A stretch of 64,000 nt of DNA from Oligoflexia bacterium (GTDB lineage: Bacteria; Bdellovibrionota; UBA1018): positions 10,054 through 74,053 of the forward strand of contig JAMPXJ010000021.1 of assembly GCA_023701205.1 (NCBI GenBank), given 5' to 3'. The notes below the pieces were generated by a model that saw only the letters and a list, made by a program, of their open reading frames with translations, ran no database searches and was not told the DNA's origin. Both the position numbers and the translations under genes were made by a program. Shown here piece after piece: positions 10,274 to 17,463 of this stretch (position 1 is its first letter; each line of letters starts with the position of its first letter).

Positions 10274-11023
10274 TCAGGTGCGCGCGGGTGACTCCGCCAT
10301 CTCGATCACGATGAAATGCGCCGCTGAGCCGACCTGACTGAATTCCAGCTCCGCGGGGCCGGTGATTTCCAAACCGTCGCGTTCGGCGAGCTCGGCCACT
10401 TCTTTGACGAGAAGGCGGCCTTCGATCGTGTTGATGTAAGCCTGGCGCCCGGCCTTGAGCTCGAAGCTCACGCGGGCCGCAGGGTCCGTGAGCTCGCAGA
10501 CATAAAGATTCACGTCCTGATTGAGATGAAGCGGGACGTGTTCTTTGTTTCGGGGATTGCCTACGATGTGCAGGAGCCGGTTGGCGCGCTCAGCGGGCTC
10601 GAACTTATGCCGGGTGTAGCGGACCTCGAGACCGGCACTGGGCGGAAGTATCCAGATCTGGAGCAGGCGGCACGGTTCGGCGCCAGTATTCATTTCGGAA
10701 TGCCAGACGCCGGTGCCCGCGGTCACGACCTGAACGTTGCCGCGGCCCAGCGTCTCCTCGGCGTTCGTCGCGCTATCCCAATGGGTGAGCTGGCCACGGA
10801 CGATGTAGCTGATGATCTCCATGTCCCGATGGGGATGGCGCGGAAAGCCGTTGTGCGGCTTGATGTCATCGTCGTTGAGGACGCGCAGGGCGCCGAACTG
10901 CATCCGCTCCGAGTCGCGGTAATGGGCGAAGGAGAAGTGAAAGTAGGTGTCGGCCGGGTGGATCCGGCTTGCGGGGAGGTAATGGAGCGAGGAGCCTTCG
11001 ATTTTCTTGAATTTGGGAGCCAT
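10274..11023 (-). CDS. Pirin-family cupin (YhhW-like)
   Basis: FGALRVLNDD, GFPRHPHRDMEIISY, AGTGVWHSE, LQIW. Confidence 0.92.
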   Translation of the reverse strand: MAPKFKKIEGSSLHYLPASRIHPADTYFHFSFAHYRDSERMQFGALRVLNDDDIKPHNGFPRHPHRDMEIISYIVRGQLTHWDSATNAEETLGRGNVQVVTAGTGVWHSEMNTGAEPCRLLQIWILPPSAGLEVRYTRHKFEPAERANRLLHIVGNPRNKEHVPLHLNQDVNLYVCELTDPAARVSFELKAGRQAYINTIEGRLLVKEVAELAERDGLEITGPAELEFSQVGSAAHFIVIEMAESPART

Positions 11024-11050
11024 GTCTGGAGAGTACTTCAATACCCGTGC

Positions 11051-11082
11051 ACTTTATAAATCGTCAATATAAACAATAAAGT
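11051..11082. promoter_or_regulatory. Inverted repeat flanking a -35-like box upstream of pirin
   Basis: ACTTTAT-N18-ATAAAGT enclosing TTGACG (minus strand, 11062-11067). Confidence 0.4.
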
Positions 11083-11103
11083 AGAAATCTTTTCGCTCCG
11101 CCC

Positions 11104-11128
11104 GTAACCTGGCGGCTCGTTATCCGTT
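11104..11128 (+). promoter_or_regulatory. Putative autoregulatory ECF-sigma promoter
   Basis: GTAAC-N16-CGTT directly upstream of the ECF gene, matching the typical AAC/CGT ECF consensus. Confidence 0.6.
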
Positions 11129-11163
11129 TCAGGAGCATGAAGTTCGAGCGTCGCGAGGTGTGA

Positions 11164-11742
11164 TTGCTGAGGAGCCCTGAGTCGAGTCCCTCGATTCCAT
11201 CAGATCAGGAGATAGCCGACGGACTCCGGCAGGGTTCTCCCGCCGCGTTTCGCGCGCTTTATGGGGCGCAGGGCCGGGCGATTCTCGCCTACCTGACCCG
11301 CTTGACCGGGAGAAAAGAGATGGCTGAAGAGCTGACCCAGGAGACCTTCCTGACCGCTATCCGGAAGATCGGTTTCTTCCGCGCGGGGCCTGATGGGGGC
11401 CTGAAGGCCTGGGTGTTTCGGATTGCCACGAACCTGGCGCTCGATTCGCTACGGCGTGAAAAGCGGCTCGAGTTTCCGTCCGACGAGAGCGCTGATGCGA
11501 GCGCAGCCGTGAACGACGAGAGGCCCGGGCCGCAGGAGGAACTCGAGCGATTTCAGTTCTCGCAGGCGTTGAATTCGGCGCTCCTCGAGTTGACTCCGGC
11601 GCAAAGGATGATTTTCCTTTTGAAGGAACAGGAGGAGCTGAGCCTGCTCGAGATCTCGCGCGTCTGTGGCTGCAGCGAAAACGCCATCAAGCAGAGCCTG
11701 TTCCGTGCCCGCGCGGCTTTGAGGAAGAAGTTATGCGAATAG
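11164..11742 (+). CDS. ECF RNA polymerase sigma factor
   Basis: [27 protein letters not shown] (region 2); LSLLEIS...IKQSLFRAR (region 4). Confidence 0.93.
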
Positions 11743-12176
11743 AGAGGGACTCCCTCGATACGGAGATCAGCAGTGCGCTGAAGCAAAAGCGGAACCCCTC
11801 GGGTGACTTCGAGGCCGCCCTTTTCGCCGAAGCCGAGGACCTGCTCGCGAAACGCCGTGAGCAGCGCGACTCGCGCGAGGACAGGGCCCGCAGGAAGTCG
11901 CTGGCCCGAAAACGCTGGCTCGCCGGGATCGAACTTCTTGCGATTCGCCCTGACCGTCCGGCGACGGCGGCGGTCCTGGCAGCGCTCCTCGTCGCATTCC
12001 TGGCCTTACATGACGGCGGGGGCGACCGGAGCGGCAGGCTCAGCTACGCGGATCTCCCGCCGCTGCCTGAGGACAACGATTTCGCTGCTCAATACGATTC
12101 CCAGGTTCTGGCCGAGAGGCAAGCTTATGAAAGAGAGGTCGAAGATGCTCATGGAAAAGCCAGTGGCGGGATTTAA
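11733..12176 (+). CDS. Putative single-pass membrane anti-sigma factor
   Basis: Overlaps the sigma stop; helical N-terminus, one TM ([14 protein letters not shown]), short acidic tail. Confidence 0.7.
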
Positions 12177-12945
12177 GCCCGTTCTTGTCACGATTGGGAC
12201 GGTCATTGCCCTAATGGGTATAATGACAGGCGGGGCAGGCCCGGGCTATGCCGAGCCCCGGTTCCGGCTGGAGAGCGATCGCGAGGGGAAGATTCGCCCC
12301 TTCAAGGCGATTGCGGTTCCGCTGCCGGATTTCGTGCGGGAGTATGCGCGCCTCGCTTCGAAGCTGATCACCTTGGGCGGGAGCTGGGAGCAGGAGCTGA
12401 AGGGAAGCGTGACTCTCTTCCTGCGACGCCCCCTCAAGCCCGAGGAGCTGACCGAGGTTTTCTACCGGGTGCTGCATGATAACGGTTATGCGGTGGTGGA
12501 CGCGCCCGCGGGAAACGGCTGGGTGGTGATGCGGCAGCGGGACGCACGCGACGCGGCGTTGCCGGTTTACGAAATCGCAGAGGTGCCGGATTCGAGCCGT
12601 TACGTCACCGCCTTGCGCGAGCTGAAGCACAGCGACGCCGAGGTGCTGGCGCGCGTGATGCGGTCATTCATGCCCGCGAACAGCAGGGTCATCCCGGCCA
12701 CGCGGTCGCAGCTCCTCATTACCGATACGGCATCGAATATCCGCAGGCTCAACGGGCTGATCTCGCGAATGGACACGCCCGAGGCCGCCAAAAAGAGCCG
12801 CGAGCTCCCCGCCAGGGCTAGCCGACCGCGCAGTTGCGGTGAGCAGCGTATCGAGAAGCTCGTCGTGGAGAAGTTGGAGATCCAGGACAGCGGGGCGGCT
12901 AGTCCGTCGCAGCTCTCAGCTCCGAAAGGGGGAGGAAAGATATGA
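12145..12945 (+). CDS. Stand-alone secretin (GspD) N0-N1 domain protein 1, exported
   Basis: N-terminal hydrophobic/signal segment; LKGSVTL..F..VLHDNGYAVV (N0); VTALRELKHSDAE..LLITDTASNIRRLNGLISRMDTP (N1); no secretin barrel. Confidence 0.8.
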   Translation: MLMEKPVAGFKPVLVTIGTVIALMGIMTGGAGPGYAEPRFRLESDREGKIRPFKAIAVPLPDFVREYARLASKLITLGGSWEQELKGSVTLFLRRPLKPEELTEVFYRVLHDNGYAVVDAPAGNGWVVMRQRDARDAALPVYEIAEVPDSSRYVTALRELKHSDAEVLARVMRSFMPANSRVIPATRSQLLITDTASNIRRLNGLISRMDTPEAAKKSRELPARASRPRSCGEQRIEKLVVEKLEIQDSGAASPSQLSAPKGGGKI

Positions 12946-13724
12946 GAAACCTGAGAAGCCATCGGAGTGTCGCTATCTTTGTTTTCCTGGTCCTGACTCA
13001 TTTCCTGCAGACAGTGCTGGCGGCGGAGAATCCAGACCGCGTCCGATTCAAGGCCGGGGAGATGGGCCTGCTTCCGTTTCTCGAGATGGTTTCTGAAAGA
13101 CTGGAGATCTCGATCGATGCCTCCGGCCTCGGCAATGGCTCCTCGGAGACCATCGCGGTGCCCGATGCGGGAGAGATGACCCGGGAGCGTGCCAAGGCAC
13201 TCGCCCTGACCTCGCTTTATCTGAGCGGGTATACATGGATACAGGATACCTCCACGGATCTTCATCGCGTGGTACGACAGCGAGACGCGCGGGATCAGGA
13301 GATTCCCGTGATCTCGGCGTCCGCTCCCTTGCCGGATAGCGATTTGCTCGTGACCTATATCCTGCCTGTACGCCACTCGCCGCCGGAGTTCATTGCCCGG
13401 AACATGCGATCGTTCATGCCCGCAGCGAGCCGAATCATTCCTGACGATCTGAACGGCGCCGTTCTCATCACCGACTCAGCTCACAACATCACGAAGCTGA
13501 AGAAGCTGGTGGAGCGGCTGGATACGCCCGAGGCCGCGAAGCAAGCGGTGAAGTGGCTCGCCGATCGGCAGAAGCAAGCGGAAGACGCTTCCTGTCCCTC
13601 TTCGGAATCTGATCGGCCGAGCATGGATACCCCGCTCCTTATCGCATTGTTCTCGCTGATCGCGCTCGTGATCGGTTTTCTGGCGCGCGGCTATGTCATC
13701 CGGAGAATCGAGGGCGGGTTGTGA
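12942..13724 (+). CDS. Stand-alone secretin N0-N1 domain protein 2, with signal peptide and C-terminal TM anchor
   Basis: Paralog of the previous gene (RQRDARD, RSFMP, LITD.A.NI..L..L..RLDTPEAAK); C-terminal LLIALFSLIALVIGFLA; ATGA overlap. Confidence 0.8.
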   Translation: MRNLRSHRSVAIFVFLVLTHFLQTVLAAENPDRVRFKAGEMGLLPFLEMVSERLEISIDASGLGNGSSETIAVPDAGEMTRERAKALALTSLYLSGYTWIQDTSTDLHRVVRQRDARDQEIPVISASAPLPDSDLLVTYILPVRHSPPEFIARNMRSFMPAASRIIPDDLNGAVLITDSAHNITKLKKLVERLDTPEAAKQAVKWLADRQKQAEDASCPSSESDRPSMDTPLLIALFSLIALVIGFLARGYVIRRIEGGL

Positions 13725-14338
13725 GATTCGCGACGCTGCTGCTTCTGGGAATGCTGGCCTGGTTTTCGGAAGCTGCTTTTGCTTTGGAACCCCCTTTGGA
13801 GCAGGATGCTCTCGATAGGAGCCTGCGGCAGGCGGTGATCGCCGGGGCGCCCCTTGCGAAGATCGAGCGCCTGATTCACGCAGGCGCTGCCATCAATGCC
13901 AAGGCGGCCTATGGAGAGACGGCGCTGGAATATGCAGTACGTTTCGGTCGTTACAGGGCGGCGCTGAAGCTCATCGAGTTAGGTGCAGACCCCGATTCAG
14001 AGAACGACTCCGGCATGACGCCTCTTCATTGGGCGGTCCAGGATCTCAATGCTTCGCGAGTCGTTGAGGCGCTTTTGCGTGCCGGCGCCGACGTGAATCG
14101 GCGGGACTTTTATGGCAGGACTGCTCTCATGTTTGCGGCTCAAGCCGATAGCGTCAGGTCCATTGCGGTGATTCTGACTCGGGCCAGGGAACCCGTTGAG
14201 CTGGACGCTCACAACGATCACATGGAGACCGCATCGTCCCTGGCCCGGAGTGAGATGGTTTTGCAGATGCTGGAGCTGGCTCGGAAGCACCAGGAACGCG
14301 GCATCGGCGGGGAGTTGGAGCCAGGAACGCTGAACTAG
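13721..14338 (+). CDS. Secreted ankyrin-repeat protein
   Basis: Signal peptide (AFA); GETALEYA, GMTPLHWA, GRTALMFA repeats; GTGA overlap. Confidence 0.9.
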   Translation: MRFATLLLLGMLAWFSEAAFALEPPLEQDALDRSLRQAVIAGAPLAKIERLIHAGAAINAKAAYGETALEYAVRFGRYRAALKLIELGADPDSENDSGMTPLHWAVQDLNASRVVEALLRAGADVNRRDFYGRTALMFAAQADSVRSIAVILTRAREPVELDAHNDHMETASSLARSEMVLQMLELARKHQERGIGGELEPGTLN

Positions 14339-14383
14339 AGTCCCGGGAGCCCTCCCTGGCCCCCGAGCAGCGAAAGCGTCAGC

Positions 14384-15070
14384 TCAGTTGGTTCCGCAAC
14401 GCTCGGAGCAGGTGGAGCTGCTCCAGCCCTCGGCGCGGCATTGGCTCCAGCAGGCGCTGCTGCCGGCTCCGGTGTCGGTTCCGCAGCGCTGAGAACAGGT
14501 AGAGCTGCTCCAGCCTTCGGAGCGACACTGGTCCCAGCAGGATTCGCTGCCGGGGCCGGTATCGGTTCCGCAGCGCTGAGAGCAGGTGGAGCTGCTCCAA
14601 CCTTCGGAGCGGCACTGATCCCAGCAGGACTCGCTGCCGGCGCCCGTGTCGGTTCCGCAGCGCTCGGAGCAGGTGGAGCTGCTCCAGCCTTCGGAGCGAC
14701 ACGCATCCCAGCAGGACGCGCTTCCCGAGCCCGTGCCGCCCGAGTCTCCCGAGTCATCTGAAGTGCATCCGCGGACGCACGCGGAGATGCACTCGCTATC
14801 GGTATCGAGCGGAGCGATGCCCAGTTGGCGGAGGACGAAGTCGTTGTTGTTCCTGAACTTGAGCCGGGTTCTGAGCTCGCGGGTTTGCTTTTCGGTTCTC
14901 AGCTGCAGAGCCTGGTCCGAGAGCGCGTAGCGGATCGCGAGCTCGGCGTCTGACTTCTTGAATTTCTCGGCCAGGATCCGATCCTTCGGGGTGCTGGCGT
15001 GGGCCATGCCGGAGGCCAGGGCCACTACGGAAAACAGCGAAACTGCCCAGTTCATACGCGTGTTTTTCAT
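14384..15070 (-). CDS. Secreted Cys-rich repeat protein, 4x CWxxCRxEGWSSSTCSxRCGT
   Basis: Signal peptide ending AHA; SD aagga; repeat copies differ mostly at synonymous positions in this frame. Confidence 0.8.
   Translation of the reverse strand: MKNTRMNWAVSLFSVVALASGMAHASTPKDRILAEKFKKSDAELAIRYALSDQALQLRTEKQTRELRTRLKFRNNNDFVLRQLGIAPLDTDSECISACVRGCTSDDSGDSGGTGSGSASCWDACRSEGWSSSTCSERCGTDTGAGSESCWDQCRSEGWSSSTCSQRCGTDTGPGSESCWDQCRSEGWSSSTCSQRCGTDTGAGSSACWSQCRAEGWSSSTCSERCGTN
14387..14713 (-). repeat. Coding tandem repeat, 87-bp unit, about 3.8 copies
   Basis: First-Cys codons of the units start at 14713, 14626, 14539 and 14452. Confidence 0.9.
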
Positions 15071-15099: not shown

Positions 15100-15525
15100 T
15101 CAGAGGCTTTTACAGTCCGAGTACACGTAGCCGGATTTGCGGATCGAGGCGGCTGCGCAACGATCCCCCGCGAAGGTCTTGATCTCCTTGCAGTCGGAGT
15201 AAACGTAGCCGGATCTCGCGATCGCGGCTTCGGCGCAGGCGCCACCCGCCGTGAGGCTCAGGCAGTCCGAGTAGACATAGCCCGATTTACGGATCGAGGC
15301 CGCCGCACAGCGATCCTGAGCCTCGTTCTGGATGTTTTTGCAGTCGGACTGAATGTAACCGGATTTTTCGAGCGAAGCCTCGGCACAGCTCCCGGTGGCG
15401 GGGCCGCTTCCGTCCGAAGGGGTGCAGGTATATTTCTGCCCGTTGTGAACGATCTCGAGGTCATCCGCGGATGCCAGAATCGGAAAAAGACAAAGACCCA
15501 ATAGGACGCTACTTGCTTTCAACAT
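15100..15525 (-). CDS. Secreted Cys-repeat protein, 4x CAxAxxxxSGYxxSDC
   Basis: ATG 15525 with SD aaggag; signal peptide ending ASA; four CX14C units. Confidence 0.8.
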   Translation of the reverse strand: MLKASSVLLGLCLFPILASADDLEIVHNGQKYTCTPSDGSGPATGSCAEASLEKSGYIQSDCKNIQNEAQDRCAAASIRKSGYVYSDCLSLTAGGACAEAAIARSGYVYSDCKEIKTFAGDRCAAASIRKSGYVYSDCKSL

Positions 15526-15552
15526 CGGAAATCTCCTTTTTGCCGGCTGGTG

Positions 15553-15569
15553 TGCAGGGCGTGTGCCCG
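15553..15569 (-). promoter_or_regulatory. Putative sigma54 promoter for the two Cys-repeat genes
   Basis: Minus strand GGCAC-ACGCC-CTGCA (GG-N10-GC), about 30 nt upstream of the ATG. Confidence 0.55.
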
Positions 15570-15763
15570 GGTTTTTGGACGAAAAAGCGGGTTTTTGGGC
15601 CCAGAAAGGGACCGAAATGGGGATCTCTCGCACCTTGCGATGCGGCATTGTTTCTTTTTGTCACCGGGAGCTTCGTCTAGCCGTGGCCGCGATTTCTGGA
15701 TTCCGGGGAACGCGTGAAATTTGCTTGGACCCGCTCCCGCCGCAAGCATATAAACGGAAGGAC

Positions 15764-16093: not shown

Positions 16094-16182
16094 TCCATGG
16101 CCGCGAGCGGCCCTGGCTCCCTTTTCGTTTCGATCAACTTCTTCCATCGTCCCGCTGCTTGATGCGCGGGAGAGGAGCTTTC

Positions 16183-17463
16183 GTGAACTGGGCTTTTTTT
16201 ATCATCTGCTTATGGGCGGGAACCGCCGTCTTGCCGGCAATGGCTTCAGAGCCGGCGGAGTCGGCCTATTGCCTGGCATTGGCGTCCGCGCATGAGAACC
16301 CGCGCCTGGTCCCGCGCGGGATTCTCAGCTGTGTTTTGGAGAACCATCCGGAGCTTCGAAGTTCCCGTCTGGTGCAGAAGCAGGCGGCCGCGCAGGTCGG
16401 CTACGCCGGCCAGAGACCCAATCCCGAGCTCGACGGCCGGGTGGGACTGGCTGCCCTTGGGGGCCAGGAGGCCGCCAATGCGCTTGAGGTGTCGCTTCTT
16501 CATAGGTGGGAGCTCGGAGGGCGGCGCTCGGCGCGAGTCGCGCGCGCACAAGCCGAGCTGAACCTGGCCGCAGCGGACGTTCGCAAGCGTGAGGAGACCG
16601 CTGCCGTTCAGACGCTTCTGGCGCTGCATCGCTTGAGACAGCTCGAAGAGGAAAAGGCCATCCTCGCTGACACGGTGACGACGTTTGAAAAGCAGCTCGC
16701 AGCTCTCGGGGGCCGGCCGGCGCTGACGCCCGAGCAGCAGGTGTCGCATTCGATTTTCGTTTTGGCGAAGGAGGAGGCGGAGCTCAGGGAGGCTTCGCTC
16801 CTGGCGGAAAAGGAAAGATTGATCCGCAGGCTGCAGTTTTGGATGGGATCGGCGATGCCGTATTCGCACGCGTGGCTTCCCTCGGAGCCTTCGCGCTGGC
16901 CCGAGCTGGCGACCGGGTCGCCGGCGCAGGCAGAGCCCGCGGCTTTGCGAGGCGCGGCCGCCGTTTCCGGCCTGGCGCAGGCGGAGCTCGGTCTGGCGCG
17001 TGCGGAAGCCTGGCCGGATCTGAAATTCGGGCCATTCCTCGAAAGGACCGACGCCGTTTCGGGCAGGGCTTACTCGCTTGGGATTCAGCTCTCGCTCACT
17101 TTGCCCGTTTTCAATCAAAACGGTGGCGGCCGAGCAGCCGCGCAAGCCGGAGTGGATCGCGCCGAATCCGACGCCGGCATCGCGCGGGCCGAGCGCGAGT
17201 CGGAGCGCTCTAGCGCGGTCGCGCAGTACCAGAAAATGGTAGGCAGGCTAGGTCAGTCGCGCTGGAAGCGGGAGAGCGGCGGGCGCCAGGAGACGCTCGA
17301 GCGGCTTTTCGCGCGCGGGCTGATCTCGATTCCGCTCGTGATCGAGGCGCATCGGCAACTCCTCGAGCTGCAGAAGACCTTCCATGAGCTGGAGCTTCAG
17401 GCGCTCGAGGCGATCTATCAGATACAGGTGCTCGATGGAAAACTCCCGGAGGCATTCTTATGA
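16183..17463 (+). CDS. czcC: TolC/CzcC-family outer-membrane efflux protein
   Basis: ENHPEL, RPNPEL, WELGGRRSAR, LTLPVFNQNGG; GTG 16183 follows SD gaggag. Confidence 0.85.
   Translation: MNWAFFIICLWAGTAVLPAMASEPAESAYCLALASAHENPRLVPRGILSCVLENHPELRSSRLVQKQAAAQVGYAGQRPNPELDGRVGLAALGGQEAANALEVSLLHRWELGGRRSARVARAQAELNLAAADVRKREETAAVQTLLALHRLRQLEEEKAILADTVTTFEKQLAALGGRPALTPEQQVSHSIFVLAKEEAELREASLLAEKERLIRRLQFWMGSAMPYSHAWLPSEPSRWPELATGSPAQAEPAALRGAAAVSGLAQAELGLARAEAWPDLKFGPFLERTDAVSGRAYSLGIQLSLTLPVFNQNGGGRAAAQAGVDRAESDAGIARAERESERSSAVAQYQKMVGRLGQSRWKRESGGRQETLERLFARGLISIPLVIEAHRQLLELQKTFHELELQALEAIYQIQVLDGKLPEAFL

Follow-up and report, generated by a model that had tools for sequence, protein, structure and literature searches.

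An ECF sigma/anti-sigma operon with two barrel-less secretin N0-N1 proteins in Bdellovibrionota

Sigma factors of the extracytoplasmic function (ECF) type rank among the commonest signalling devices of bacteria, and for most of their groups the sensing partner is unknown. Here, we describe an operon of an Oligoflexia bacterium (Bdellovibrionota; assembly GCA_023701205.1) found in a 64,000-nucleotide stretch of contig JAMPXJ010000021.1 (positions 10,054 to 74,053 of the forward strand, hereafter the window). It encodes an ECF sigma factor, a single-pass anti-sigma factor, a secreted ankyrin-repeat protein, and two proteins – N0N1-A and N0N1-B, or A and B – that consist of the periplasmic N0 and N1 domains of a type II secretion system (T2SS) secretin without its outer-membrane barrel. 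The architecture is real, conserved, and restricted to a few lineages of Bdellovibrionota, and sigma and anti-sigma genes accompany A and B wherever enough sequence is available. We read the operon, tentatively and at somewhat less than even chances, as an ECF module that is self-contained and activates its own expression; B, together with A, would be the periplasmic partner of a short-tailed anti-sigma factor.

The five genes lie on the forward strand and fill window positions 11104-14338 behind an ECF-type promoter, as the list of open reading frames (ORFs) and the sequence itself indicate (Table 1). Neighbouring genes overlap by 4 to 32 nt, which suggests coupled translation. This layout had been proposed in an earlier reading of the DNA alone (the sequence-only reading) and was borne out by the ORFs, by the sequence, and by conservation of the promoter in nine loci. 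Between the anti-sigma gene and A (12145-12176), the last 10 anti-sigma codons and the stop share their DNA with the start of A, read in a different frame. Homologues keep the two frames, the anti-sigma factor ending in TSGGI and A beginning with M-L/P-I-K/R-E-P, and on these alignments the 32 nt are under double constraint. Signal peptides and membrane helices were read from the sequence and from helices in AlphaFold2 (AF2) models rather than with a dedicated predictor.

A and B both match the N-terminal part of the secretin GspD. In Pfam, A matches N0 (PF21305, E 1.3e-6) and Secretin_N (PF03958, E 9.7e-6) and B matches Secretin_N (PF03958, E 4.9e-6); against the 600-position GspD model TIGR02517 (cut-off 351), A aligns with positions 28-171 (E 1.9e-19, 69.6 bits) and B with positions 33-164 (E 1.1e-13, 50.6 bits). 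Neither has a match to the secretin barrel (PF00263) at E ≤ 1, and both end 60-70 aa past N1, without N2, N3, barrel or S-domain. AF2 models built from family alignments have a mean predicted local distance difference test (pLDDT) score of 83 for A – above 95 in the core at about residues 50-225 and 50-58 in the C-terminal tail, in a numbering that begins at the alternative start 12127 – and of 91 for B. In Foldseek searches of the Protein Data Bank (PDB), the top matches of both are T2SS secretin N0-N1 domains (PulD 6hcg_A, GspD 3ezj, XcpQ 4e9j, 5ngi), followed by the N-domains of type III secretion and type IV pilus secretins. The fit to 6hcg_A has a root-mean-square deviation (rmsd) of 2.4 Å over 160 columns for A and 3.2 Å over 166 for B. 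Because the domain matches and the structural fits agree and PF00263 is absent, we conclude that genes 3 and 4 are GspD-like N0-N1 paralogues without a barrel, as the sequence-only reading had described them.

The two proteins differ in what follows N1. A has a signal peptide, N0, N1 and a poorly ordered C-terminal tail with a conserved CGEQRIEKLVVEKLEIQD, and neither a barrel nor a membrane helix. B has a signal peptide, N0-N1 (about residues 33-193), a helix (196-215), a linker with a conserved C218, a confident membrane helix (230-257), and a predicted cytoplasmic tail ending RGYVIRRIEGGL; the signal peptides in the sequence and the helix in the AF2 model agree with the earlier view that A is exported and that B also carries a C-terminal membrane segment. 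Across 41 sequences, this membrane helix and the last 12 residues, RGYVIRRIEGGL, show little or no variation, and they are identical even between families with only 26% identity overall, a pattern suggestive of a conserved partner at or within the membrane. Within its own genome RGYVIRRIEGGL occurs only in B, by tblastn and a six-frame regular-expression search, and searching a protein atlas with B residues 196-260 yielded no usable match.

Homologues number 52 for A (150-285 aa) and 45 for B (143-271 aa); those that are named are called hypothetical, 'secretin N-terminal domain-containing' or GspD and come from Oligoflexia or Bdellovibrionota. Their frames are intact in nearly all cases (A 233-285 aa, B 240-271 aa), the few shorter ones (143-219 aa) being probably cut by contig ends. 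Among 401 genomes of the phylum, close orthologues of A (E < 1e-60) are present in at least six, all within the family of the window, and more distant A-B pairs in at least three genomes of another family. A scan of one genome per species (185,579 species) returned nine loci, labelled Bdellovibrionota, Bdellovibrionales, Bacteriovoracaceae or Oligoflexia, and a metagenome scan added eight, about half of them repeats of the former; there are 16 distinct loci in total. All carriers are uncultured or little-studied Bdellovibrionota.

Gene order is strictly kept. In all 14 loci where the region is present, A is the gene directly upstream of B, the sigma gene is upstream of A-B in all 12 loci with enough sequence, and an anti-sigma ORF stands between sigma and A in the same proportion (12/12), ten of them found by tblastn; that of L052 is backed by its position, a membrane helix and a weak zf-HC2 match (E 0.03), and that of L053 by position and helix. 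The gene after B is variable: in 15 evaluable loci it encodes an ankyrin protein in eight, an LprI-like protein in one (L063; E 9e-4 and 20 bits, under the cut-off of 22, and so a hint only) and unknown proteins in two, and it is missing in four, including L043 and L072. Since both this fifth gene and the ORFs flanking the operon vary from locus to locus, the conserved unit is a core of four genes (sigma, anti-sigma, A, B) to which a cargo gene may be added. Of the arrangement seen in the window, the recurrence of the first four genes in other genomes is confirmed and a constant ankyrin gene is not. The window's ankyrin protein matches Ank_2 (E 8.7e-21) and related Pfam families; a PDB search with it was uninformative, giving generic ankyrin and DARPin matches only, and a link to the Bdellovibrio ankyrin self-protection protein Bd3460 (PMC4686830) is an analogy that we do not count as a finding.

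The sigma factor consists of regions sigma2 and sigma4 only (Sigma70_r2 E 3.2e-15, Sigma70_r4_2 E 7.6e-15), exceeds the cut-off of the sigma70-ECF model TIGR02937 (E 6.8e-29, 100.6 bits versus 42.9), has SigE, SigW and RpoE as its closest solved relatives, and is 62-88% identical in related loci. The predicted anti-sigma factor comprises about 75 cytoplasmic residues, a membrane helix spanning roughly residues 76-93 and a periplasmic tail of 54 aa containing a 10-residue motif that is nearly invariant in the homologue alignment of the window-type lineage. Its 22 homologues are of 140-170 aa. The window copy has no Pfam match, and there is no FecR-type domain in its periplasmic part. Its more distant counterpart in L064 keeps the H-x3-C-x2-C pattern and scores just under the zf-HC2 cut-off (E 2.8e-4, 21.3 bits versus 22.2), the zinc-finger N-terminus being kept there and lost in the window copy. 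On this comparison gene 2 is probably related to anti-sigma factors, with an origin in the zinc-finger class.

The promoter motif GTAAC-N16-CGTT (equivalently GTAACC-N15-CGTT) occurs once in the window, against a chance expectation of 0.16; with at least one match in 14 of 100 shuffles, the match taken alone is weak evidence. Its position upstream of sigma is kept in all nine loci compared, as GTAACC-N15/16-CGTT in six (the window, L042, L043, L044, L045 and L064) and as ATAAC variants in L041, L052 and L053. GTAAC-N16-17-CGTT matches the genome six times, and its sole apparently intergenic copy – one not covered by a 200-aa open frame – is the operon promoter. A looser pattern gives 15 matches, of which three besides that of the operon lie outside such frames, either without a downstream ORF or (on contig C40) with a doubtful one of 476 aa; a regulon candidate on C21 is rejected since it lies inside a long open frame. 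Across five related genomes the motif shows no excess over its reversed control (32 matches versus 61), and its copies away from the operon all lie inside long frames except for two weak cases, L098 and L101. A scan for sigma-70 promoters and terminators gave nothing exceeding shuffles. The sequencing runs listed for window positions 11000-14400 are DNA metagenomes throughout, with none of RNA among them. The operon promoter is a putative autoregulatory element of the AAC...CGT type, and with the strict motif the operon itself appears to be the only detectable target of its sigma factor; targets with divergent promoters would escape such a search.

The T2SS genes of this bacterium lie elsewhere. 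Profile searches found no secretin barrel, T2SS E ATPase or T2SS F protein on the operon contig (C10), which extends the earlier remark that the window has no secretin barrel and no other T2SS or type IV pilus gene, and the four secretins of the genome are on contigs C51, C6, C23 and C49. All four adjoin a gene for a T2SS E-type ATPase; C51 carries a complete-looking T2SS operon with a gene for a GspC-like protein beside gspD. The C51 GspD is the closest full-length relative of A (34% identity). The family's own GspD has the same linker and N1 motifs as A and B, RDARD and RSFMPANSRIIP, and because these are held in common we regard A and B as old offshoots of the T2SS secretin lineage rather than recent fragments. 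In a phylogeny of 57 N0-N1 segments, the window's own family contributes 25 GspD copies, which group in one tight clade (support 100/100), and window-type A (8 sequences), window-type B (8) and a third, solitary family of short proteins (11) form separate supported clades outside it; A and B of the distant family group together on long branches, so their placement is unsure. Comparison of the window with a relative of the same genus gives dN/dS values – rough ones, since dS is near 1 – of 0.08 for sigma, 0.33 for anti-sigma, 0.18 for A, 0.19 for B and 0.20 for the ankyrin gene, and on these estimates A and B are under purifying selection.

We infer the contacts, the ligand and the direction of control in the following scheme from the gene set, the folds, the conservation of locus and promoter, and the purifying selection described above. 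The sigma factor would read its own GTAACC-N15-CGTT promoter, and the single-pass anti-sigma factor, drawn from the zinc-finger class, would keep it at the inner membrane. A and B, putative old duplicates of a T2SS secretin N0-N1 module, would be co-translated with both; B would be anchored in the inner membrane by its invariant C-terminal helix and 12-residue cytoplasmic tail so that its N0 projects into the periplasm, and A would be soluble there. B with A may either hold and protect the anti-sigma tail or relay a conformational signal by contact between helices within the membrane. The sigma factor would be freed when a periplasmic ligand engages the N0-N1 domains, and it would then amplify the operon, raising the amounts of A, of B and of a periplasmic cargo specific to the lineage – most often an ankyrin-repeat protein, possibly an enzyme inhibitor. 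In a more specific version that we consider unlikely and offer as speculation, N0-N1 would be the receptor of an ECF pathway needing no outer-membrane transducer: B and A would act as a split FecR-like sensor of a periplasmic protein ligand (a T2SS component, a misassembled secretin or an invading enzyme) that switches on a self-amplifying operon delivering a periplasmic inhibitor (ankyrin in most lineages, LprI-like in one), with the B tail relaying to the sigma/anti-sigma complex.

Several observations favour B and A as partners of the anti-sigma factor. A and B are strictly linked to each other and to sigma and anti-sigma, and they are never missing while the fifth gene varies or is absent. 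The overlapping genes with their probably coupled translation, the shortness of the anti-sigma tail and the inner-membrane anchor of B suit a three- or four-part ECF system. The membrane helix and tail of B are conserved between families beyond what the rest of the protein retains, the dN/dS values of A and B (0.18-0.19) are low, and the CnrX-CnrY pair, the STN subdomain of PupR and the superposition of B N0 on the signalling domain of PupB, all considered below, offer precedents. The CGEQRIEKLVVEKLEIQD motif of the A tail and the motif of the anti-sigma tail are both present in the window-type lineage and both missing in that of L052 and L053, and the same holds for one cysteine of the A tail and another of the B linker.

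Other results weigh against such a partnership. The co-occurrence of the tail motifs rests on two clades and so amounts to one evolutionary event rather than a statistic, the anti-sigma factor of L053 has just about 25 periplasmic residues, and the membrane helix of the anti-sigma factor differs between the two lineages, whereas that of B is conserved. A fused anti-sigma/N0-N1 protein was absent from the nine mid-length proteins examined among 150 listed from 6457 profile matches, all nine carrying only N0 and Secretin_N domains. Moreover, the motif is intergenic only at the operon itself and L043 and L072 have no cargo, which makes A and B at least in part an output of the system, a role that also fits pure effectors. 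The earlier suggestion that these are repurposed secretin domains acting as sensors therefore stands for the repurposing; sensing may be a role of theirs but would not be the only one. Its further proposal of decoys for phage proteins found no support: in PADLOC, sigma, anti-sigma, A and B had no match at E ≤ 0.01, and the ankyrin protein matched only ankyrin-containing models.

The layout has a counterpart in CnrYXH of Cupriavidus metallidurans, where, as described in PMC6851896, the ECF sigma factor CnrH is likewise accompanied in an autoregulated operon by a small, single-pass, short-tailed anti-sigma factor and a separate membrane-anchored periplasmic protein. [quoted passage not shown] CnrX is a four-helix-bundle metal sensor with an N-terminal anchor, whereas the operon here has a C-terminally anchored N0-N1 protein, B, and its soluble paralogue, A; CnrX shares no Pfam family with either, and the fit in layout and topology is one of genes and models. 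CnrH also drives efflux genes, whereas for the sigma factor here no outside target was found in the motif searches.

In the RpoE-RseA-RseB and AlgU-MucA-MucB systems, a periplasmic protein encoded just after the anti-sigma factor binds the periplasmic part of the latter and sets the threshold for release. The sigma factor described here is of the same general RpoE/SigW/SigE kind, but A and B contain no MucB_RseB domain – N0 and Secretin_N being their only Pfam matches at E ≤ 1 – and the periplasmic domain of RseA is much longer than the 54-aa tail of the anti-sigma factor.

FecIRA and PupIRB provide examples of the STN/N0 fold in sigma control. The N-terminal signalling domain (NTSD) of the transducer and the C-terminal STN subdomain of the regulator share a fold, and FecR-type regulators themselves carry this subdomain, which in PupR is needed for signalling (PMC7186176). 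The N0 domain of B superposes on the PupB NTSD (chain 6ovk_B; Foldseek rank 50, rmsd 3.0 Å over 82 columns), in keeping with the sequence-only reading's statement that secretin N0 has the fold of the STN signalling domain. The operon is nonetheless not a FecIRA system, because it has no FecR-type domain, no STN transducer and a sigma factor of the RpoE/SigW kind, and because A and B come from GspD, their sequences pointing to its N0-N1 rather than to STN domains. No TonB-dependent transducer with an STN domain was found in the whole genome, where the sole match to PF07660 is a 636-aa secretin on C6. GspD, PulD and XcpQ have clear homology and a common fold with A and B, but the operon has no T2SS neighbours, and the inner-membrane anchor of B implies that its N0 points away from the inner membrane, the reverse of the secretin orientation. 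A stand-alone N0-type fold is also found in DotD of the Legionella Dot/Icm system; it is a single-domain lipoprotein of a secretion machine, not linked to a sigma factor. Weaker Foldseek matches of A and B include Dot/Icm outer-membrane-complex chains.

Our reading of B and A as partners of the anti-sigma factor has to be weighed against others. It is possible, if in our judgement unlikely, that A and B are output only: the anti-sigma factor would sense alone, for example through regulated proteolysis of its tail, and the sigma factor would induce A and B for some role in the envelope, perhaps as decoys or competitors for ligands of GspD N0-N1 (the GspC HR domain, substrates) and hence, beside the cargo protein, as a stress-induced brake or buffer of the T2SS. 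In the genome and its five relatives no copy of the motif besides the operon promoter is intergenic, the L043 and L072 operons leave A and B as the sole non-regulatory products, and A and B carry the linker and N1 motifs of a GspD whose closest full-length form, at 34% identity, belongs to the complete-looking T2SS on C51; all of this would suit such effectors. An invariant membrane helix and cytoplasmic tail in B are hard to explain for a mere periplasmic decoy, however, and strict pairing with one sigma/anti-sigma pair together with matching tail motifs suggests a tie closer than that of regulator and target.

An improbable alternative is that A and B assemble into a ring or scaffold in the periplasm, anchored in the inner membrane and belonging to some envelope structure, with the sigma pair just timing their expression. 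N1 has a ring-building fold, Foldseek also matches the N0-N1 domains of InvG, MxiD and EscC in injectisome basal bodies, and the invariant B helix has a small-residue A-x3-G pattern that may suit helix packing in an oligomer; the layout of B (signal peptide, two alpha/beta domains, C-terminal membrane helix) presumably recalls the ring proteins of the SctJ type. Against this, no other structural or ATPase genes accompany the operon, its flanks differ between loci, and sigma and anti-sigma are always present, which would be unusual for a purely structural pair. That A and B are functionless, decaying fragments of a duplicated gspD is barely conceivable. Their matches to the GspD model stop after about the first 170 positions and no barrel follows, which would suit debris, but the frames are intact in nearly all of the ~50 A and ~45 B homologues, dN/dS is ~0.19, each protein keeps conserved C-terminal features of its own, and both form separate, well-supported clades outside the family's GspD clade (100/100). 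With the A-B linkage in 14/14 loci, these data rule out a broken gspD, the outcome that would have counted against the sequence-only reading.

Some further observations concern the surroundings of the operon and other secretin-related proteins (Table 1). The operon is neighboured by genes for a pirin-family protein (E 5e-26) and a TolC-like outer-membrane efflux protein (OEP, E 4.6e-14), which look unrelated to it because the flanks differ in other genomes. Just downstream are two convergent genes for secreted cysteine-rich repeat proteins without a clear family, one with four copies of a ~24-aa motif with three cysteines (weak Pfam match to Ole_e_6, E 6.7e-7) and the other with repeats that end in SGYVYSDC; neither is kept beside the operon in other loci. 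The third barrel-less N0-N1 family, present in at least 11 genomes from several families of the phylum, comprises proteins of ~220-250 aa with a signal peptide, a CPDIP-x-CAK-like cysteine pair before N0 and a charged tail. Its members are solitary, with variable neighbours and no sigma factor nearby, and form a clade of their own (support 95/86). Three giant secretins (P0124, P0141 and P0158), 1947-3491 aa long, combine 9 to 23 tandem Secretin_N repeats with a barrel at the C-terminus, and N0 is also seen in two of them. In P0161 (1204 aa, 16 Secretin_N repeats) and P0166 (833 aa, N0 and six Secretin_N) no barrel was detected; they may represent additional forms without a barrel, or genes truncated at contig ends.

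Table 1. Coordinates of the operon, its neighbours and related loci (window, or locus where named).
Feature	Sequence	Position	Strand	Remarks
ECF-type promoter, GTAAC-N16-CGTT (GTAACC-N15-CGTT)	window	11104-11128	+	35 nt upstream of sigma start
ECF sigma factor	window	11164-11742	+	192 aa, TTG start
Single-pass anti-sigma factor	window	11733-12176	+	147 aa; 10-nt overlap with sigma
N0N1-A	window	12145-12945	+	homologues' starts favour 12145; alternative ATG 12127; 32-nt overlap with anti-sigma
N0N1-B	window	12942-13724	+	ATGA overlap with N0N1-A
Ankyrin-repeat protein	window	13721-14338	+	205 aa; N-terminal signal peptide; GTGA overlap with N0N1-B; variable fifth gene, or cargo
Pirin-family protein	window	10274-11041	-	
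Cysteine-rich repeat protein	window	14384-15070	-	
Cysteine-rich repeat protein	window	15100-15648	-	
TolC-like outer-membrane efflux protein	window	16159-17463	+	
Anti-sigma counterpart	L064	3579-4148		
Third N0-N1 family	L046	5890-6567	-	
Third N0-N1 family	L047	2153-2881	-	
Third N0-N1 family	L048	835-1494	+	
Third N0-N1 family	L049	2825-3487	+	
Third N0-N1 family	L050	5801-6490	+	
Third N0-N1 family	L051	6001-6744	+	
Third N0-N1 family	L055	5910-6590	+	
Third N0-N1 family	L056	3472-4221	+	
Third N0-N1 family	L057	584-1255	+	
Third N0-N1 family	L058	1994-2740	-	
Third N0-N1 family	L059	5924-6379	-	

ECF systems with accessory periplasmic partners are a known kind, and what was not previously described in the literature searched is an ECF sigma factor and anti-sigma factor always paired with two barrel-less N0-N1 proteins. 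Literature on the context of ECF sigma and anti-sigma genes, on secretin N0 domains and on barrel-less secretins yielded no description of this arrangement, as the sequence-only reading had anticipated. The main text of the ECF reclassification (PMC7826278) makes no mention of secretin, type II secretion, GspD, STN, Bdellovibrio or Oligoflexia, and its supplements on group context could name the group.

The practical reach of these findings is narrow because the carriers are only uncultured or little-studied Bdellovibrionota. Within them, the obligate partners of a sigma pair are the periplasmic entry domains of a secretin without the pore. If A and B do control the anti-sigma factor, the N0/STN fold would be a general module of sigma control that extends beyond TonB-dependent iron uptake, and the operon would represent a third way of wiring this fold to transcription, after its fusion into FecR and into transducers. 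If they are instead an output, A and B would be the first natural barrel-less competitors of the periplasmic domains of a T2SS secretin. Under either reading, the invariant 12-residue tail of B offers a sharp experimental handle.

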